Program-made: the position numbers and the translations under genes
Notes under the pieces: model-generated
The model's input: the letters and a program-made list of their open reading frames with translations, nothing else
Database searches by the model: none
Told to the model about the DNA's origin: nothing
Source of the DNA: a virus
DNA: 64,000 nt
Strand: one strand, 5' to 3'
Virus record (IMG/VR): IMGVR_UViG_3300046804_001245
Span: 42,883-106,882 of that record
Shown here: positions 2,996 to 24,848 of the stretch, piece by piece
How positions within the stretch are numbered: the stretch's first letter is position 1
Layout of the letters: every line of letters begins with the position of its first letter

Positions 2996-4053
2996 TGGCT
3001 AAAGAAGGATATTCGCCAACGGCAGGAATGAAGTCCGCAGCAAAGCGGGCTATTCGTTGGAAAGAACAGGGTAAAGCAACAGGTGCAGGAACTGCAGTTG
3101 GCTGGACTCGTGCTGGACAATTAGCTAGAGGTGAAACACTAAGCCTCTCTACTGTTAAGCGCATGTACTCCTTCTTTTCCAGACATGAAGTAGACAAAAA
3201 AGGTAAAGATTTTTATAATACTTCTAACCCCTCAAATGGGCGGATTATGTGGGACGCATGGGGTGGAGATGCTGGTTTCTCTTGGTCTCGCAAAATTGTA
3301 GAAAGAGAAAAGAATATGAAAAAATCATATGTACAAGAAGACCTAATTGAAGAAATTAAAGATATGCTAACAGATGCAGTAGAGCCATTTGATACTGTTG
3401 TTGAAATTGATGACGACGAAGAAATCAAAAAAGCTTTACGTCCAGAAGTAACTAAAGAACAGCTTGGCATGGTAATTGAACATCTTATGGAAGCAATTGA
3501 AGGAATGATTGAAGTGCCAGAAGAAGAGTCCCCAGACTCAGAGTCTGATGCAGAAACGCCAGAAGCAGAAGACAATGGCGTTCCTCCTGTTGGAGACCCT
3601 ATGAAGAATGAAATTAATTATCCTGTTGCGAAAGTTCATGACGAAGAGGATAAAGAAGAAGTATATAAGTCTGATAATGAAGATGAAGATAAATGGGACA
3701 ATGAAATGCAAAAGTGCTGGTCTGGGTATACGCAGGTTGGCATGAAAGAAAAGGGTGGACGTATGGTACCAAATTGTGTACCATCATCCAGCGTTAAGAA
3801 ATCTTTATTTGCAGATAAACTAGATCCATTTGATCTTGTAAAGCGTAAATTTACAGCAGAGCAACGCCGTAGCATGGCAGAAGAAGGCAAGGCCATGCCA
3901 GATGGGTCATATCCAATTGCTAACCGCACAGACCTAATGAATGCAATTCGTTCATGGGGACGTGGCGGAGCAGATCCAAAGGTAAAAGCACATATTAAGC
4001 GTCGTGCAAAGGCACTTGGCGCATCAGATATGATTCCAGAAAACTGGAAATAA
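2992..4053 (+). CDS. Multi-domain phage protein (head-associated-type modules, acidic linker)
   Basis: N-terminal ...TVKRMYSFFSRHEVDK...WDAWGGDAG and C-terminal MPDGSYPIANRTDLMNAIR...IPENWK modules, which I recall as fused to phage head/protease proteins; CWSGYTQVGMKEKGGRMVPNCVP mini-repeat. Confidence 0.6.
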   Translation: MMAKEGYSPTAGMKSAAKRAIRWKEQGKATGAGTAVGWTRAGQLARGETLSLSTVKRMYSFFSRHEVDKKGKDFYNTSNPSNGRIMWDAWGGDAGFSWSRKIVEREKNMKKSYVQEDLIEEIKDMLTDAVEPFDTVVEIDDDEEIKKALRPEVTKEQLGMVIEHLMEAIEGMIEVPEEESPDSESDAETPEAEDNGVPPVGDPMKNEINYPVAKVHDEEDKEEVYKSDNEDEDKWDNEMQKCWSGYTQVGMKEKGGRMVPNCVPSSSVKKSLFADKLDPFDLVKRKFTAEQRRSMAEEGKAMPDGSYPIANRTDLMNAIRSWGRGGADPKVKAHIKRRAKALGASDMIPENWK

Positions 4054-4361: not shown

Positions 4362-4653
4362 TTTAGGTGTAGATACAGACGATTTTGACTGGTGGCATCT
4401 AGCAGTATGTCGTGGAATGGATACAAATCTATTCTATGATAAGTATGAAGTAGACGCCAACATAGCAAAAAATATAGACGACGCATGCTTGTCATGCCCA
4501 GTACTTAAAATGTGCTATGAATCAGGCATAGAAAAAGCAGAGTATGGAGTATGGGGTGGCGTCTATATGTCATCAGGAGAAATAGATAAATCTAAGAATC
4601 TCCACAAAACTCCAGAAATTTGGAAGAAACTAAGGAGTAAAGGTGTCGCTTAG
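4342..4653 (+). CDS. whiB: WhiB-family Fe-S transcription factor
   Basis: Four Cys (AVCRG, CLSCPV, MCY) and the YGVWGG turn motif. Confidence 0.9.
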   Translation: MSNILNDLGVDTDDFDWWHLAVCRGMDTNLFYDKYEVDANIAKNIDDACLSCPVLKMCYESGIEKAEYGVWGGVYMSSGEIDKSKNLHKTPEIWKKLRSKGVA

Positions 4654-14685: not shown

Positions 14686-16116
14686 CTAGTCGGATATGTC
14701 CGATTTGTCCACTACGATAATATCATTAGACATGGATGGATATCCATCTTCTAACAAATCTGTTGTATCTCCTTCAAGCTCGTTATCTACATAATGAACC
14801 TGAATTGTAGAATCAGTTTCTATTTGGATCCAAGAATGTGTTGCGGCATTGGAGGCAATATCCCATGCCTCCTCCGCATTTGCCGCTTCCACATCAATAT
14901 AGTATTCAATTAGTTTATCTCCGAAGACTCTATGCTTGCTCATTTAGCCACCCGTCCTCATCCAGGGATACAAGGAAGTCGTTATCCCTCATCCAATCTC
15001 TGATTACCTCTTCCAGGATTTCGCCGCCGTGGTCCATATTAATACCAAGACCGTCGACATCATCCCAGAACTTATCCCAGATTTGTTTAAGAGTTACGCC
15101 AGTTGGCACAGCCTCGTCAACATAGTCATTAACAGCAAGGTCTTCATACTTACAATTGTCGTAGATGTCCTTGATTATATCAAATGTCCATGCCCACAAC
15201 AATGAGGGAAATGCGGCAACATCAGACAATAATCTGTTAATCTCCAGCATTTGATTGTATACGTCGTCCCTACGTGTTTGGTCCTGTAGATCTAATTGTG
15301 CTTTATGCACATCTAATGATTCAATTTGCATTCTTGGTCCTTTCGTTAATTGCAAATGCTAATGCATATGTCATTTGGTAAATATGTGTGAGAGCGTCCA
15401 TTTGGCCCTCCCAGTATTTCCGCTCCATAGATTCCATGGCGTCGGAATAATCATTCTCTTCCTCAATACGCTGTGCTTCCTCCAGTTCACGCTCTGCGTC
15501 TAGCATGAGGACCTTTAGGTGCCCGTGCAAGATATCGGTGCCAGAAGACCCAGCGTCGACCTGCTTCTGCAGATATGGGTCCAGTTCTAATGTGTTCATA
15601 GTATTTCCTCCACGTATTCAAGGATGTGAATTGTAGCAGAAACTTGGCCGCTTGTATAGTTATACTCAAAGTCTAATTCAGCATAATCTTTTGAGGCGGG
15701 GTCCAAGGAATCCATACGAGTAGACAACTGAGACAAATCCTCATTCAAAGATTGTATATGTAATTGAAGATAAGTAACTAATTGGGTCTTCCTATTTATA
15801 TATTCAGTTTCCATTTCTCTCCTCTATACATTTAAAACAAATCTCTTTGTTGTTTACCGATACGGTAATTACTTTATAGTCATAACAGATATTACACATT
15901 GAAGTAGAATTCATCTCCCTCATTTAAATTATAAAACTCATTGAATTTATTCTTCAGCAAAGGGTCATCATACAATTGGATTAATTTCCAATCTGCATAC
16001 ATGGTTCCCTCATCTAAATTGGACTGATTAAATTGGTCAAACAGTTCCATTGCTACAGCATGAATAATTTCACCTGTATCTGCTTCAGTCATATCGTCAA
16101 ATACCGAGTGTTGCAT
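14686..16116 (-). CDS. Operon of small acidic hypothetical proteins (14686-14943, 14930-~15330, 15321-15599, 15596-15814, 15892-16116)
   Basis: Overlapping - strand ORFs with RBS motifs. Confidence 0.7.
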
Positions 16117-16889: not shown

Positions 16890-17020
16890 TATATATTCCT
16901 TTCGTTCGGTTGAATGGTCCAATTATACAATGCCCCACCGACATTTGACAATATCCCCCAAGTTTCGGGAAATTACATTAGATCTCGTAACAGAGCTATA
17001 TGGTCCTCAGGCATGCGGGC

Positions 17021-17165
17021 AAAAGCAAATCCCCCAGGAACCAACTGGGGGATATTGACACGTAGGGCTGCTAGTCAAACGAAAGGAATTAAGTAAACAC
17101 TGCTTTACTTAGCGACTTGGGGAATCCCTATAGCCGCACCCTACATTTAAATGGGCCTAAGCCGT
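17021..17165 (-). ncRNA. Candidate ~145-nt structured small RNA with anti-RBS segment
   Basis: TATAAT at 17172-17177; helices GTAGGG/CCCTAC and TAAGTAAA/TTTACTTA; 3' terminator ATCCCCCAG/CTGGGGGAT-TTGCTTTT; no convincing ORF. Confidence 0.6.
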
Positions 17166-17172
17166 AGATTAA

Positions 17173-17577
17173 TTATACCAGAAGAGGGACGTCGGTATAT
17201 TTCTCTACGAATGTGCGTAGGTCCATTACGAAGAGGGGCTCATTGCTCATACCACGAACCTTGTTGTCCAAGTTATAGAATGAATCCTCTGTATGAAGAC
17301 TAAAAGTCATTTGTGTAAAGTCGACGATAGCAATCTTGTGCTCGTTATCGCCAATCTCATTTACATGCAGGCCCCATCCAGTCTCCATAGACCAACCGTC
17401 GCCAATCATATGACTGATTGCGATACGTGTTGCATATGAAGGGTCCGACCAACGAGGCTGTGCTTTTGCAACCGCCTCTGCTAAATTGGCAAGCATGTTG
17501 TGGCCCGCCCAGTGTCCATACAGTACAATTGTGTTACCGTTCGGCTGTACAAATCCGAAGTTTGCTCTGTCACCCAT
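17173..17577 (-). CDS. Hypothetical phage protein
   Basis: MGDRANF...LYGHWAG; RBS present. Confidence 0.75.
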   Translation of the reverse strand: MGDRANFGFVQPNGNTIVLYGHWAGHNMLANLAEAVAKAQPRWSDPSYATRIAISHMIGDGWSMETGWGLHVNEIGDNEHKIAIVDFTQMTFSLHTEDSFYNLDNKVRGMSNEPLFVMDLRTFVEKYTDVPLLV

Positions 17578-18689: not shown

Positions 18690-18804
18690 TTGTTTCCTTT
18701 CGTTGTTATTGACCGTATTATAGCGGACCTGACTGACAAAATCCAGGGGTCCCGCCCCTTTGTCGTAACAATCTTTTTTGGATTTCACGTATGCGGGCGA
18801 GCTG

Positions 18805-18879
18805 CGACCCATACCAGATTTGAACTGGTGATCTCCACCGTGACAAGGTGGCGCTTTAACCATGCTAAGCCAATGGGCC
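18805..18879 (-). tRNA. tRNA-Asp (GTC), CCA not encoded
   Basis: Acceptor GGCCCAT/ATGGGTC-G; anticodon arm CCACC-TTGTCAC-GGTGG; T arm ACCAG-TTCAAAT-CTGGT. Confidence 0.9.
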
Positions 18880-19922: not shown

Positions 19923-20216
19923 AGATTTATCCTTTCGATAGTTGATTAGTTCCTGAATTATACACTACGCTGCCGACATTGTAAATAGTTAGTTCCAATA
20001 TAGGGCAAATCGGACACCCTGTGAGAAAGCTCACAGGATCCAGGGGTATTTTAGACTTGACGTAACGGGGCTTCGCCCCCCACAGTTGTGCGGGCCTTCA
20101 GCTCATGTACTCGTTGATCACATCCAGCGCATTACACAATTGGCAGAAACATTCGCCATGGTCCATAACATCTTCCCAAATTAATTGCTGCAATTCGTGC
20201 ACCGCATATGGACCGC

Positions 20217-20949: not shown

Positions 20950-21306
20950 TCACCACATACCGACAGCGAATTCGGCAACAGTATCTAGACATTCGGCGCA
21001 TGCCCAATCATCGCCATAGACTTCGTATTCTGCCTCATCGACAAAATAGGTGGCAGTACCACAGATTTCATAGTATAAACAATTTACTTTTATCATTTAG
21101 TTTCCCTTTCGTTATGCGGATATTATAACAGATTAGACTGACAATTTATCTTCGACACGCCACCTTGCGACATATTTTTCTAGGTCTGCTAGGTTATCAT
21201 CTGTGAGATAGGTGGAGATTACGCCAAAAGAATATGCGTATTCGTTATAGCCTTTTTCTTTTGCGTAGGCTAGGAGGTCATTTAGAATATCGTTTCTGTC
21301 TTTCAT
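20950..21306 (-). CDS. Two tiny genes (20950-21096 Cys-containing; 21133-21306), not in track
   Basis: Each has its own TGTCRG-N10-TATAAT promoter and GAAAGG RBS. Confidence 0.65.
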
Positions 21307-22331: not shown

Positions 22332-22404
22332 TTTATTTCCTTTCGTTAGTTATGAGCAAGAATTATAGCAGGGGATACTGACATTGTATCCCCCACCTAT
22401 TTAG

Positions 22405-23439
22405 TTATTTAGCAGGTGCGCTAGTCCAGCGTTCCTTGCCATTGACATCAAGCAGAATACGATTTACACCTGAAGGGTGATTATCTACTGCTTTGATAAC
22501 GCCTGTCACGCCACTATTAGTGGTTGTGTAGGTCTGTCCGATTTCCAGAGTTGCCATTTATTTTCCTTTCGTTGTTGTGGAAGGCTATCCTAGCATAGCC
22601 CACCGACATTTTAGAGCCACGCCTCTAGGTGGTGTTGTTCTACGATAGCCCAAGCGGGTGCGGTATTGAAACCTTTATAAGTTATGCCTTCGGGCATTGG
22701 TATCTCACGATCAGTTTCGCCTTCGTTGTAAGCCTCAATAGCCTCAATACACGGCAATACCATAGATTTAGGAACGGGCGGGTAATGATTAGAAGTTAGG
22801 TGAATACCAATAGCGGTAGATAAGTCTAATTCGCCATTGGCTAATTCTGTTGCGAAGGTGCTACCCATTTAGCACCTCGTTTCTCATTGTTTCAATTTCG
22901 TCAATAGTAGCGATTAGGTCTTTTACTTGGCTTTCAGTTAGTAATACTTTAGTAGCCTTATCTACTGCGGTGCTTGCTAGCATAGAAGCATAGACGAACA
23001 AGGCTTTGGCTATTTGTTCATCATCTAATTCTTTGTAAGAGTGTGTAATAAATTGAGCGAAGCCCATAGCCTCGTCATCAAAAATAGTTTCTTCAGTTGC
23101 CTGAATAAGAGCGGTTGCGGTTGCTATCATTTATTTATTTCCTTTTCGTTTAGTGGTGGGTAGATTATACACCTACCCACCGACAATTTAGGCAAGGGCT
23201 AAAATAGCCTGCGTTGCACCTAGATTTACGGCATCTAATTCTGCCTGTAATTCCTCGGTTGTCATTTTAGTAGGGTCGCCTACTAATTCGGAGATAGCGT
23301 CACGATTAATCATCTCTACCATTTCGGTAGGCATGCGTGAGATTTGTGGATAGAAAGAGCCATTAGTATCTAGTTTAGATACAAAATTAACTCCATTAAC
23401 GGAGAACGGGAACGAAGCCCAGTTATCTGTGTTTAGCAT
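22405..23439 (-). CDS. Small hypothetical genes (22405-22557 not in track; 22611-22868; 22861-23130; 23188-23439)
   Basis: ORFs preceded by the repeated promoter and RBS. Confidence 0.7.
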
Positions 23440-23725
23440 TTTTTCCTTTCGTTTGTTTGATTAGCGCAATTATAGCGTAGGCTACTGACAAATTAGTTTT
23501 ATTCTGCCCGCCAGCTTTGTGATAAACATCACAAAAATCCAGGGGTTTTAAACTTGACTCGTAACAGGAGTTTGCCCCACTCTCCTTTGCGGGCGATTTG
23601 TTGAAAGTTCAACCAATTTAGTTGATTATTCAACAAAACGTTTTTTATGTTTTGATTTTCTTTTGTAAATTTTTTTAGACGGAATTGGTTGCGCCGCATT
23701 ACTACGGCGCAATTCCAAAACTTTT

Positions 23726-24848
23726 TTAATTCGTGGTAAATTTTGGAACACGATAATTGCTCGCTTCGTAGAATTTATTCGCATCAAATCTAGGATTATC
23801 TTTTGCGAACATCAACGCAAAATCAACAACCATTTTAGAAAAAATAGCGGGGTGAGTTTTATCTGAAACATACCGCAGAATTTCTGCGGTAGCGACATAG
23901 TCTTTACGAGTCATCACGATTTTACTCCGTCACACTCAACAACATCAAAAACATCAAATTTTGCCAAGTCTGAGTCTGGCAATTGAAATAGAATTTTGTT
24001 TAGCGCAAAAACCGCTTGTAAATCGGTTTCTGCTTCGGTAACAAAACTAATCAAGACATTTTTTTTCATTAGTCATTCTCCTTATCAAATAGAGAGCCGT
24101 CATAGTGAGATGTTGGATTACAGTCACAAGGCTCAATGTTGTAATCCTCAGCACCGCCATAGAAAAGCCAACCTTTTCCGTAGCAGGTATCGCAGTCAAA
24201 AGCGAGAGTATGAATTGTTTTCATTTTTAGTTTTCCTTTCGTGTTGTTTCGGTAATTGTAGCATTAGCCACCGACAAAATTGCCGATAGATTAGAATTGC
24301 GTTTTTCTTTTACTTCCGCTAAACGCTGGGCGATAATGAATTCTCTAAATTCTTTTAGATCCATTTTAGTTTTCCTTTCGTTTTGTTATTGGTTGAATTA
24401 TAGCGTGGGGGTCTGACATTTTCCCTAGTTAGGGAGAATGTCTGGACCATAATAAGCAACGGCGGAAACGATGTTCATCATTCCCTTATATTCATTACAG
24501 GATACGCATACGCTATTCCAGCGGTCATAAGTTTTTGAGCAGAATACGCAGATGTTATCCTGAAGGCTAAAGCCTAGATTTTCAATTTCTCTAAGTGTAG
24601 TCATTTAGTTTTCCTTTCGTAGTAAATCAGATTATAGCGGAAGCCACCGACATTTAGTCGGCAACTTTCACGGCGACAGTCGCCCATTTATTTCCGTTGA
24701 AACGGATAGCGTAGGCTTCATAGCCGTCAAGCCAAATATCCTCACGCTTTTCTGCGAAAGTAATTTCGCCGAATTGGTATTTTCTCGCAATAGAGCGAGG
24801 GTAATAAGTCTGACCTACAAGAAGGTCGGGAATTGAATAAGTTTTCAT
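23726..24848 (-). CDS. Small hypothetical genes (23726-23917, ~23914-24069, ~24070-24224, ~24429-24604, 24654-24848)
   Basis: Read manually downstream of the repeated promoter/RBS units; several are Cys-rich. Confidence 0.6.

Follow-up and report, generated by a model that had tools for sequence, protein, structure and literature searches.

Several described systems control genes through short sequences at ribosome-binding sites (RBSs). The P1/P7 c4 RNA (Rfam C4, RF01695), P22 sar and lambda OOP are phage antisense repressor RNAs that act at such sites. In Gram-positive bacteria, Staphylococcus aureus RNAIII and RsaE, Bacillus subtilis RoxS and the actinobacterial 6C/B11 RNAs are multi-target small RNAs (sRNAs) that direct pyrimidine-rich loops against Shine-Dalgarno (SD) sequences. 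Other sRNAs derive from 3' untranslated regions (UTRs), either from an internal promoter (type I) or by processing (type II); the known examples are bacterial and mostly Hfq-dependent. Phage T4 uses proteins instead: RegA is a translational repressor, and RegB is an endoribonuclease that cuts GGAG in early SDs. To our knowledge, phage sRNAs that regulate their own phage's programme come from a few model systems, each acting on one target. Here, we analyzed a 64,000-nucleotide (nt) stretch (the window; bases 42883-106882 of the 106,882-bp IMG/VR record IMGVR_UViG_3300046804_001245, a virus with direct terminal repeats and ~40% G+C) in which the - strand interval 17021-17180 is predicted to encode a structured RNA whose loop is complementary to a box shared by leaders of early genes.

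Judged from its sequence, this interval is an RNA gene, single-copy in this genome, for a transcript of ~145 nt running from ~17165 to ~17021, with the start inferred from the position of the predicted promoter. Comparative evidence strongly supports the element, its structure and its sequence relation to the early-specific leader box as real, whereas expression, pairing in vivo and a repressive direction are what we infer from it. With somewhat better than even confidence, we favor a base-pairing sRNA that would occlude the RBSs of box-bearing early mRNAs.

A widespread family of predicted phage RNAs

The RNA is preceded by a gene for a 134-amino-acid (aa) protein (17577..17173, - strand; phrog_31860), and a search with this protein yielded 80 related viral loci with 50-93% identity. 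These loci form the unbiased, protein-anchored set, which holds 52 unique elements. A covariance model of the element, a check proposed in an earlier first-pass annotation of this DNA, detected it in 79 of the 80 loci, always directly after the 134-aa gene and on the same strand (E ≤3e-8); at the 80th, the contig ends short of the element site. A motif scan identified the element on >119 IMG/VR contigs, many of them from records of 105-116 kb. When a strict version of the scan was run on 185,579 bacterial and archaeal species genomes, seven matches were obtained, of which five were chance occurrences with the rest of the element missing and two were true copies on 3-kb contigs (L083 and L088) of metagenome-assembled genomes (MAGs), probably binned phage fragments.

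Comparison of the window with Rfam 15, which includes the C4 antisense RNA, 6C, riboswitches and ribozymes, gave nothing at gathering score except a tRNA-Asp. With permissive E-values, the sole match within 16900-17250 was that of the terminator hairpin to ctRNA_pGA1, at 15.6 bits against a gathering score of 45. Nothing relevant to a described counterpart was found in the literature. Overall, sequence comparison indicates a family of phage RNAs that is new and widespread and whose structure has strong support.

The ~90-nt core of the element is predicted to form a three-way junction of helices P1, P2 and P3, composed of the following parts.

17138..17144, - strand: 5' strand of P1, GUAGGGU, paired with 17062-17068; four of seven pairs change on both sides (GC/AU/UA/CG)
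17112..17137, - strand: P2 hairpin with base GCGGCU/AGUCGC and a variable distal part; 99.8% of cells paired
17104..17111, - strand: J2/3, UAAGUAAA, a near-invariant junction strand, with UAANUAAN in all relatives (alignments A2 and A3)
17070..17103, - strand: P3 stem GCAGU/ACU(A)GC with a 23-nt apical loop, from covariation; RNAalifold gives the same base
17062..17069, - strand: J3/1 A and the 3' strand of P1, GCCCUAC, from covariation tabulations

Over 73 distinct sequences, 95.4% of cells were paired compared with 82.1% in shuffles (0/500 shuffles scored as high), and the covariation score was 0.343 compared with 0.107; registers slid by 1-3 columns reached 23-46%. An alignment-free, anchor-based count of 93 unique sequences revealed several canonical pair types at P1 pairs 1, 2 and 4, at P2 pairs 3 (GC/AU/CG/UA) and 4 (GU/UG/UA/CG/AU), and at P3 pairs 3-5, which were canonical in 87-98% (AU/GC/GU, GC/GU/UA and GC/CG/UA/AU, respectively). 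In the same tabulation, the P3 register lacking the 1-nt bulge failed. G-U and U-G pairs were frequent (e.g., 43 GU and 26 UG at P2 pair 4), which identifies the - strand as the RNA strand. The junction strands GGUGC, UAANUAAN-GC and (A)GCAGCC were invariant or nearly so in the protein-anchored set.

The nested helices described in the first-pass annotation could thus be refined to a covarying three-way junction, but without the helix UAAGUAAA/UUUACUUA. This pairing of J2/3 with the P3 loop dominates the single-sequence fold and was rejected as a family feature, being confined to one subfamily: most subfamilies have no UUUACUUA loop segment, and G-to-A changes in J2/3 are uncompensated. A further idea that was set aside is mimicry of 16S rRNA h45 and its 3' tail (GGUGCGGCU, AAGUCG, CCUUUC); the segments occur here in permuted order.

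An invariant loop complementary to early-gene leaders

The sequence AAUUCCUUUCGUUU is found at 17090..17077 (- strand), in the apical region of P3, and contains the predicted seed.

17078..17086, - strand: seed CCUUUCGUU, complement of the leader box

The core CUUUCGUU (17085..17078) was invariant in 52/52 unique protein-anchored elements, with variable flanking nucleotides, and was always located apically in P3. Thermodynamic ensemble folding of the predicted 145-nt RNA gave AUUCCUUUC an unpaired probability of at least 0.88, in line with the unpaired seed anticipated earlier, and GUU one of ~0.4-0.5. Invariance, accessibility and an apical position in the covarying P3 together describe a conserved seed that is predicted to be single-stranded. 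The loop comprises 23 nt in the subfamily of the window, and in several others the stem closes beside the seed to leave a 7-8-nt loop, UUUCGUU(G). Some subfamilies have AC or UC in place of the CC of the seed, or have the CC within the P3 stem. The seed includes a UUCG that conforms to YUNR, the U-turn motif of antisense recognition loops.

The corresponding leader box, AACGAAAGGA, occurs eight times in the window compared with 0.07 copies expected. Seven of these lie ahead of start codons on the - strand; the remaining one, on the + strand, belongs to the sRNA gene. The boxes listed were identified by copy counting and by scans of promoters and leaders.

16897..16906, - strand: AACGAAAGGA in the leader of the next gene (DUF1281_C-type protein, ATG 16892..16890), downstream of the promoter at 16943..16922
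18695..18704, - strand: AACGAAAGGA in the leader of the operon that ends with the sRNA
21104..21113, - strand: AACGAAAGGG, from the leader scan
22338..22347, - strand: AACGAAAGGA, from copy count and promoter scan
22564..22573, - strand: AACGAAAGGA, from copy count and promoter scan
23444..23453, - strand: AACGAAAGGA, from copy count and promoter scan
24233..24242, - strand: ACGAAAGGAA, from the promoter scan
24373..24382, - strand: AACGAAAGGA, from copy count and promoter scan
24611..24620, - strand: ACGAAAGGAA, from the promoter scan
15338..15347, - strand: AACGAAAGGA before the ATG of a 134-aa open reading frame (ORF; 15334..14930), without a TGTCRG-type promoter

The further sites at 19930, 21311, 24233 and 24611 and the near matches at 21103, 23138 and 24853 read CGAAAGGA, ACGAAAGG or one-off variants and are located downstream of TGTC[AG]G-N10-TAnnnT matches. 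The exact ACGAAAG was present at 10 of ~20 early promoters, and six more had a weaker match (CGAAAG, ACGAAA or GAAAGG). Control of the whole island, as first proposed, was therefore overstated. The box lies 5-9 nt before the start codon, in leaders that are short, CA-rich and devoid of obvious inhibitory structure. At 15338-15347, it follows a conserved stretch, TTTACC...CATTAGCATT(T/C)GCAAT, that is also present in relatives; this leader may thus come under the same post-transcriptional control from another kind of promoter.

In the wider family, 627 non-redundant leaders were collected past TGTC[AG]-N11-TAnnnT matches in all fetched loci. The commonest 8-mer among them was AACGAAAG (present in 56%), and conservation around GAAAG was high immediately before it (A 0.94, A 0.81, C 0.86) and after it (G 0.87) and then dropped. 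These edges coincide with those of loop conservation, so that the leader block AACGAAAG(G) mirrors the sRNA block (C)CUUUCGUU. Genome-wide, AACGAAAG occurs 11 times, with eight copies in early-region leaders before start codons and one in the sRNA gene. The AAC of the box cannot pair with the 16S 3' end (CCUCCUUUCU). GAAAGG was found upstream of 0/105 ORFs outside the early island, where genes use AGGAG/GGAG; the whole box, and not only its extension, is thus early-specific. GAAAGGA, described in the first-pass annotation as the core of the normal actinobacterial SD, is thus not the general RBS of this phage. Conversely, the complementarity proposed between the seed at 17077-17090 and a shared early-leader RBS is supported by copy number, conservation and early specificity. 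The non-16S extension takes part in it as claimed, but the invariant core CUUUCGUU/AACGAAAG consists of that extension and the 5' half of the SD, not of the whole 14-mer. In 16 genomes of the family of the element-bearing MAG, AACGAAAGGA was not enriched, which is weak evidence because that family is a guess at the host.

Since AAACGAAAGGAAUU on the + strand is identical to the leader box, it could instead be the real RBS of a small + strand ORF. However, neither the window nor 89 of the 103 unique contexts from relatives has a start codon 3-16 nt further on, the other contexts giving inconsistent short frames; an early-type + strand promoter is lacking, and the G-U covariation fits the - strand only. 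Such a mini-ORF, which would have overturned the original proposal, is thereby excluded, and we give this explanation practically no credence.

A different explanation is a structured RNA that binds a phage or host protein or another factor, for example as a decoy, scaffold, ribozyme-like or ligand-binding RNA, with the leader match being secondary or coincidental. It would account for the (near-)invariance of GGUGC, UAANUAAN-GC and AGCAGCC despite their position at the junction, and it agrees with the strict syntenic link to the 134-aa protein and with the lack of a matching Rfam family. The complement of J2/3 showed no enriched sites in the genome and no second target set, a result that neither supports nor excludes protein binding. 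Against factor binding as the main role, the leader 8-mer that is most over-represented, and early-specific, has its exact complement in the invariant apical 8-mer, and the conservation boundaries of the two coincide; a chance match of one given 8-mer among ~80 positions has a probability on the order of 1e-3. We therefore regard it as unlikely, if a serious contender.

Predicted pairing between loop and leaders

When the unpaired loop segment was compared with both genome strands using RNAduplex, the top three trans duplexes were all early leaders, with energies of -20.1 kcal/mol (next gene, 16906; the best), -18.7 kcal/mol (23453) and -18.2 kcal/mol (18704). Leaders made up nine of the 20 best trans matches in the genome. 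In relatives, they were again among the top matches, with a noisier ranking because stem sequence was part of the query. Taken together, complementary sites are located in the translation-initiation regions of the proposed targets: they occur in 56% of the 627 leaders, are early-specific and provide the top RNAduplex matches.

Co-variation between seed and box was also expected from the earlier proposal. For sRNAs reading UCCUUUCG, the two leader positions that follow AAAG are mostly G (92%) and A (70%); for those reading UUCUUUCG, leader A rises to 31% at the first of the two, and U can pair with A. As the compared sRNA groups are clades, this one shift, 5' of the core, is not an independent signal and is suggestive only.

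The same pairing could have the opposite sign, with the sRNA activating or protecting early mRNAs by shielding their 5' ends from RNases or bridging them to the ribosome. The complementarity evidence applies equally to this alternative; the RNA is co-oriented with the early operon and would be co-transcribed with it in 13/59 contexts, and its conserved scaffold might offer another surface for binding. Yet the duplex overlaps GAAAGG, the only SD-like element of the leaders, which makes occlusion of the 30S subunit the simpler outcome, steric occlusion through SD pairing being an established sRNA mechanism. The short, CA-rich leaders also offer no obvious inhibitory structure for an activator to open. 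Activation or protection consequently appears rather improbable.

Promoter, terminator and genomic context

Signals for transcription of the RNA were found on both sides of the structured core.

17172..17180, - strand: extended -10 promoter TGGTATAAT (TATAAT 17177..17172 preceded by TGG 17180..17178), overlapping the TAA stop of the 134-aa gene
17154..17163, - strand: small 5' hairpin GGC-UUAG-GCC, from the fold, just past the inferred start at ~17165
17021..17053, - strand: intrinsic terminator, a 9-bp stem with six GC pairs followed by UUUGCUUUU; the hairpin itself spans 17053..17029 and the T-rich tail extends to ~17021

The TATAAT at 17172-17177 and the intrinsic terminator, both noted in the first-pass annotation, were confirmed in the sequence, as was the absence in the window of TGTCRG 10 nt upstream of this -10, where the sequence reads CCGACGTCCCTCTTCTGG-TATAAT. 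Both signals are conserved. A -10-like hexamer was kept in 46/59 unique relative contexts and TGn in 40 (typically aTGgTATAAT), mostly ~27-34 nt 5' of P1 and followed by a small hairpin of variable sequence; this hairpin differs from that of the window but is equivalent and in the same place (e.g., CUAGGACC..GGUCCUGG or UAGGCC..GGCCUA). A terminator-like hairpin with a T run was present downstream in 58/59 contexts. With no conserved ORF on either strand of the element, these signals describe a putative discrete transcription unit with its own promoter and Rho-independent terminator.

In 13/59 unique contexts, all from more distant subfamilies, P1 begins within a few nt of the upstream stop and no -10 is present, so that the RNA there would form the 3'-terminal part of the early-operon transcript. 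The promoterless loci (L055-L057, L059-L064, L007, L012, L014, L016, L026, L038 and L041, at ~3400-3410 in each) have no 5' hairpin either. On sequence grounds, the family therefore appears to hold both an own-promoter version and a 3'-UTR version of the same RNA. Its position is that of a 3'-UTR-derived sRNA, since it invariably follows the phrog_31860 gene without a gap and stops at the first terminator, so that it would have its 3' end in common with that upstream coding transcript. Many relatives (e.g., L070-L081, at ~3365-3390) carry AGTCRACT-N8-TATAAT, with the same geometry as the island TGTCRGTG-N8-TATAAT and only GTC in common, which may represent a variant of the island promoter class. 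The claim that the sRNA belongs to a different promoter class thus holds in the window but is not clear-cut in the family, because many relatives have AGTCRAC at the TGTCRG position and 13/59 contexts have no own promoter.

Alternatively, the element could be a cis-acting 3'-UTR element of the upstream operon (an mRNA stabilizer, a termination/antitermination module or a riboswitch of the downstream gene) with no function in trans. Its constant location between the 134-aa gene and the terminator is compatible with this, as are the 13/59 contexts that abut the stop codon and lack their own promoter. However, an own extended -10 and a 5' hairpin are conserved in most lineages, and the complementarity of an invariant loop to leaders at distant sites would be left unexplained. 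A separate promoter, TGTCGGTG-N8-TATAAT (16943..16922, - strand), serves the next gene, and a TGTCRG-N10-TAnnnT promoter between terminator and RBS is conserved in relatives at +230 to +300. The element is thus not in a 5' UTR free of intervening promoters, and a riboswitch or attenuator is unnecessary and unlikely, with alternative pairing judged by inspection alone. A purely cis-acting role is, in our estimate, quite improbable.

Directly after the sRNA terminator, TTTGCCCGCA is kept in most relatives (window 17011-17020, - strand UUUGCCCGCA; same position in L002-L081). Most likely, it serves as a protein site or as an element upstream of a promoter and does not belong to the sRNA.

Many residues are invariant (e.g., GHW and DNEH) in the 134-aa protein, whose gene is always immediately 5' of the RNA, and its AlphaFold model is a confident alpha/beta one (predicted local distance difference test score, pLDDT, 87). 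When considered as a possible RNA partner, it had no Pfam family and no significant Foldseek match, and VIA-align gave Z ≤3.9.

The early region and its likely host

A WhiB-like gene, which we regard as a hallmark of actinobacterial phages, is located at 4390-4563 of the window on the + strand (PF02467, 43.5 bits), and the early genes include those for DUF932 and GP88 (PF17338) proteins. Between 16181 and 26159, ~20 - strand promoters fit TGTC[AG]G-N10-TAnnnT. These early promoters match the PafBC consensus of mycobacteria, tGTCgg(N10)tA(N3)T (PMC8635444), and on the basis of these sequences an actinobacterial host is therefore likely. No gene for a WYL-domain protein was found in the phage genome, so that activation of PafBC-type promoters would need a host factor or an unrecognized phage protein. 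A tRNA-Asp (GUC) is encoded inside the early region at 18804-18879 (- strand), just upstream of the promoter at 18738. No near relatives were detected among phage GenBank records with megablast or blastn.

Proposed action on early mRNAs

In the mechanism we favor, the RNA would be transcribed from its own extended -10, or in some relatives would form the 3' end of the transcript of the preceding early operon, and would stop at the intrinsic terminator. The covarying three-way junction would hold the apical P3 loop so that it displays (C)CUUUCGUU, which could form 8-13 bp with the AACGAAAG(G) box of promoter-proximal early genes driven by PafBC-type promoters (TGTC[AG]G-N10-TAnnnT). As the duplex would cover the 5' half of the SD, pairing would most likely block 30S binding, and it might also expose the mRNAs to decay. 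A single RNA could in this way lower the output of a whole group of early genes at once, serving either for feedback or for an early shut-off. The OFF direction, its timing and any dependence on PafBC are, however, purely conjectural.

Several observations weigh against this mechanism. The exact box is present at only about half of the early promoters, and the pairing core that is common to the family is short (8-10 bp). Duplex-energy rankings were noisy in the genome itself and more so in relatives. Positions flanking the core co-vary with the leaders little or not at all (weak or none at -4/-5). Some subfamilies are predicted to have the first C or the CC of the seed in the P3 stem, leaving a 7-8-nt loop. 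Furthermore, the junction (GGUGC, UAANUAAN and AGCAGCC) is as conserved as the seed, an unusual trait in an sRNA that acts by base pairing alone; this suggests that the RNA has another partner or function, and a contact of the junction with a protein or the ribosome is plausible. Most of the probability not given to RBS occlusion is shared by activation or protection, factor binding and a cis role.

A bolder possibility, to which we attach little probability, is a two-part guide. Here, the loop would read the AACGAAAG tag, and the junction core (GGUGC/UAANUAAN/AGCAGCC) would bind a machine of the host or the phage and recruit it to all leaders with the tag. Such a machine might be an RNase, the 30S subunit or the 134-aa protein encoded alongside. 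If true, the RNA would be more than a passive RBS blocker, namely a guide that switches phage translation or decay across the regulon, possibly acting as a surrogate anti-SD favoring phage messages.

Comparison with known systems

The family described here comes from uncultured freshwater actinobacterial phages of ~105-116 kb, in which one RNA is combined with a leader box on about half of the early promoters and with PafBC-like promoters. If the pairing that we favor is real, it would clearly exemplify a virus that marks a class of genes with a short RNA address, read by one controlling RNA, and it would also provide a new, well-defined RNA family (a three-way junction with a ~90-nt core) for Rfam-type catalogs. 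Seed and box are short and invariant, making the proposal directly testable despite the uncultured host.

Like c4, sar and OOP, the element would be a small structured phage RNA that turns an exposed loop against the RBS region of its own phage's mRNAs in an early decision. In contrast to these RNAs, which act on one overlapping or adjacent transcript, it would act in trans on ~10-15 separate leaders through a shared box; it has no Rfam match, and its scaffold is a three-way junction. The second comparison is with RNAIII, RsaE, RoxS and 6C/B11, with which it would share a C/U-rich single-stranded loop against many SDs, no need for Hfq, an own promoter and a Rho-independent terminator. Unlike them, the element belongs to a virulent-type phage of ~107 kb and has invariant junction nucleotides, and its seed, by including CGUU, would recognize the non-SD extension AACG and thus be selective for the phage's own early leaders.

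With 3'-UTR-derived sRNAs, the element has the terminator of the upstream operon in common, and lineages with an internal -10 (46/59) and without one (13/59) are both represented; it differs in being phage-encoded. The logic of its proposed role is that of T4 RegA and RegB, where an early-encoded factor reads a shared feature of early RBSs and shuts the genes off together. Those factors are proteins, whereas here the recognizing agent would be an RNA.

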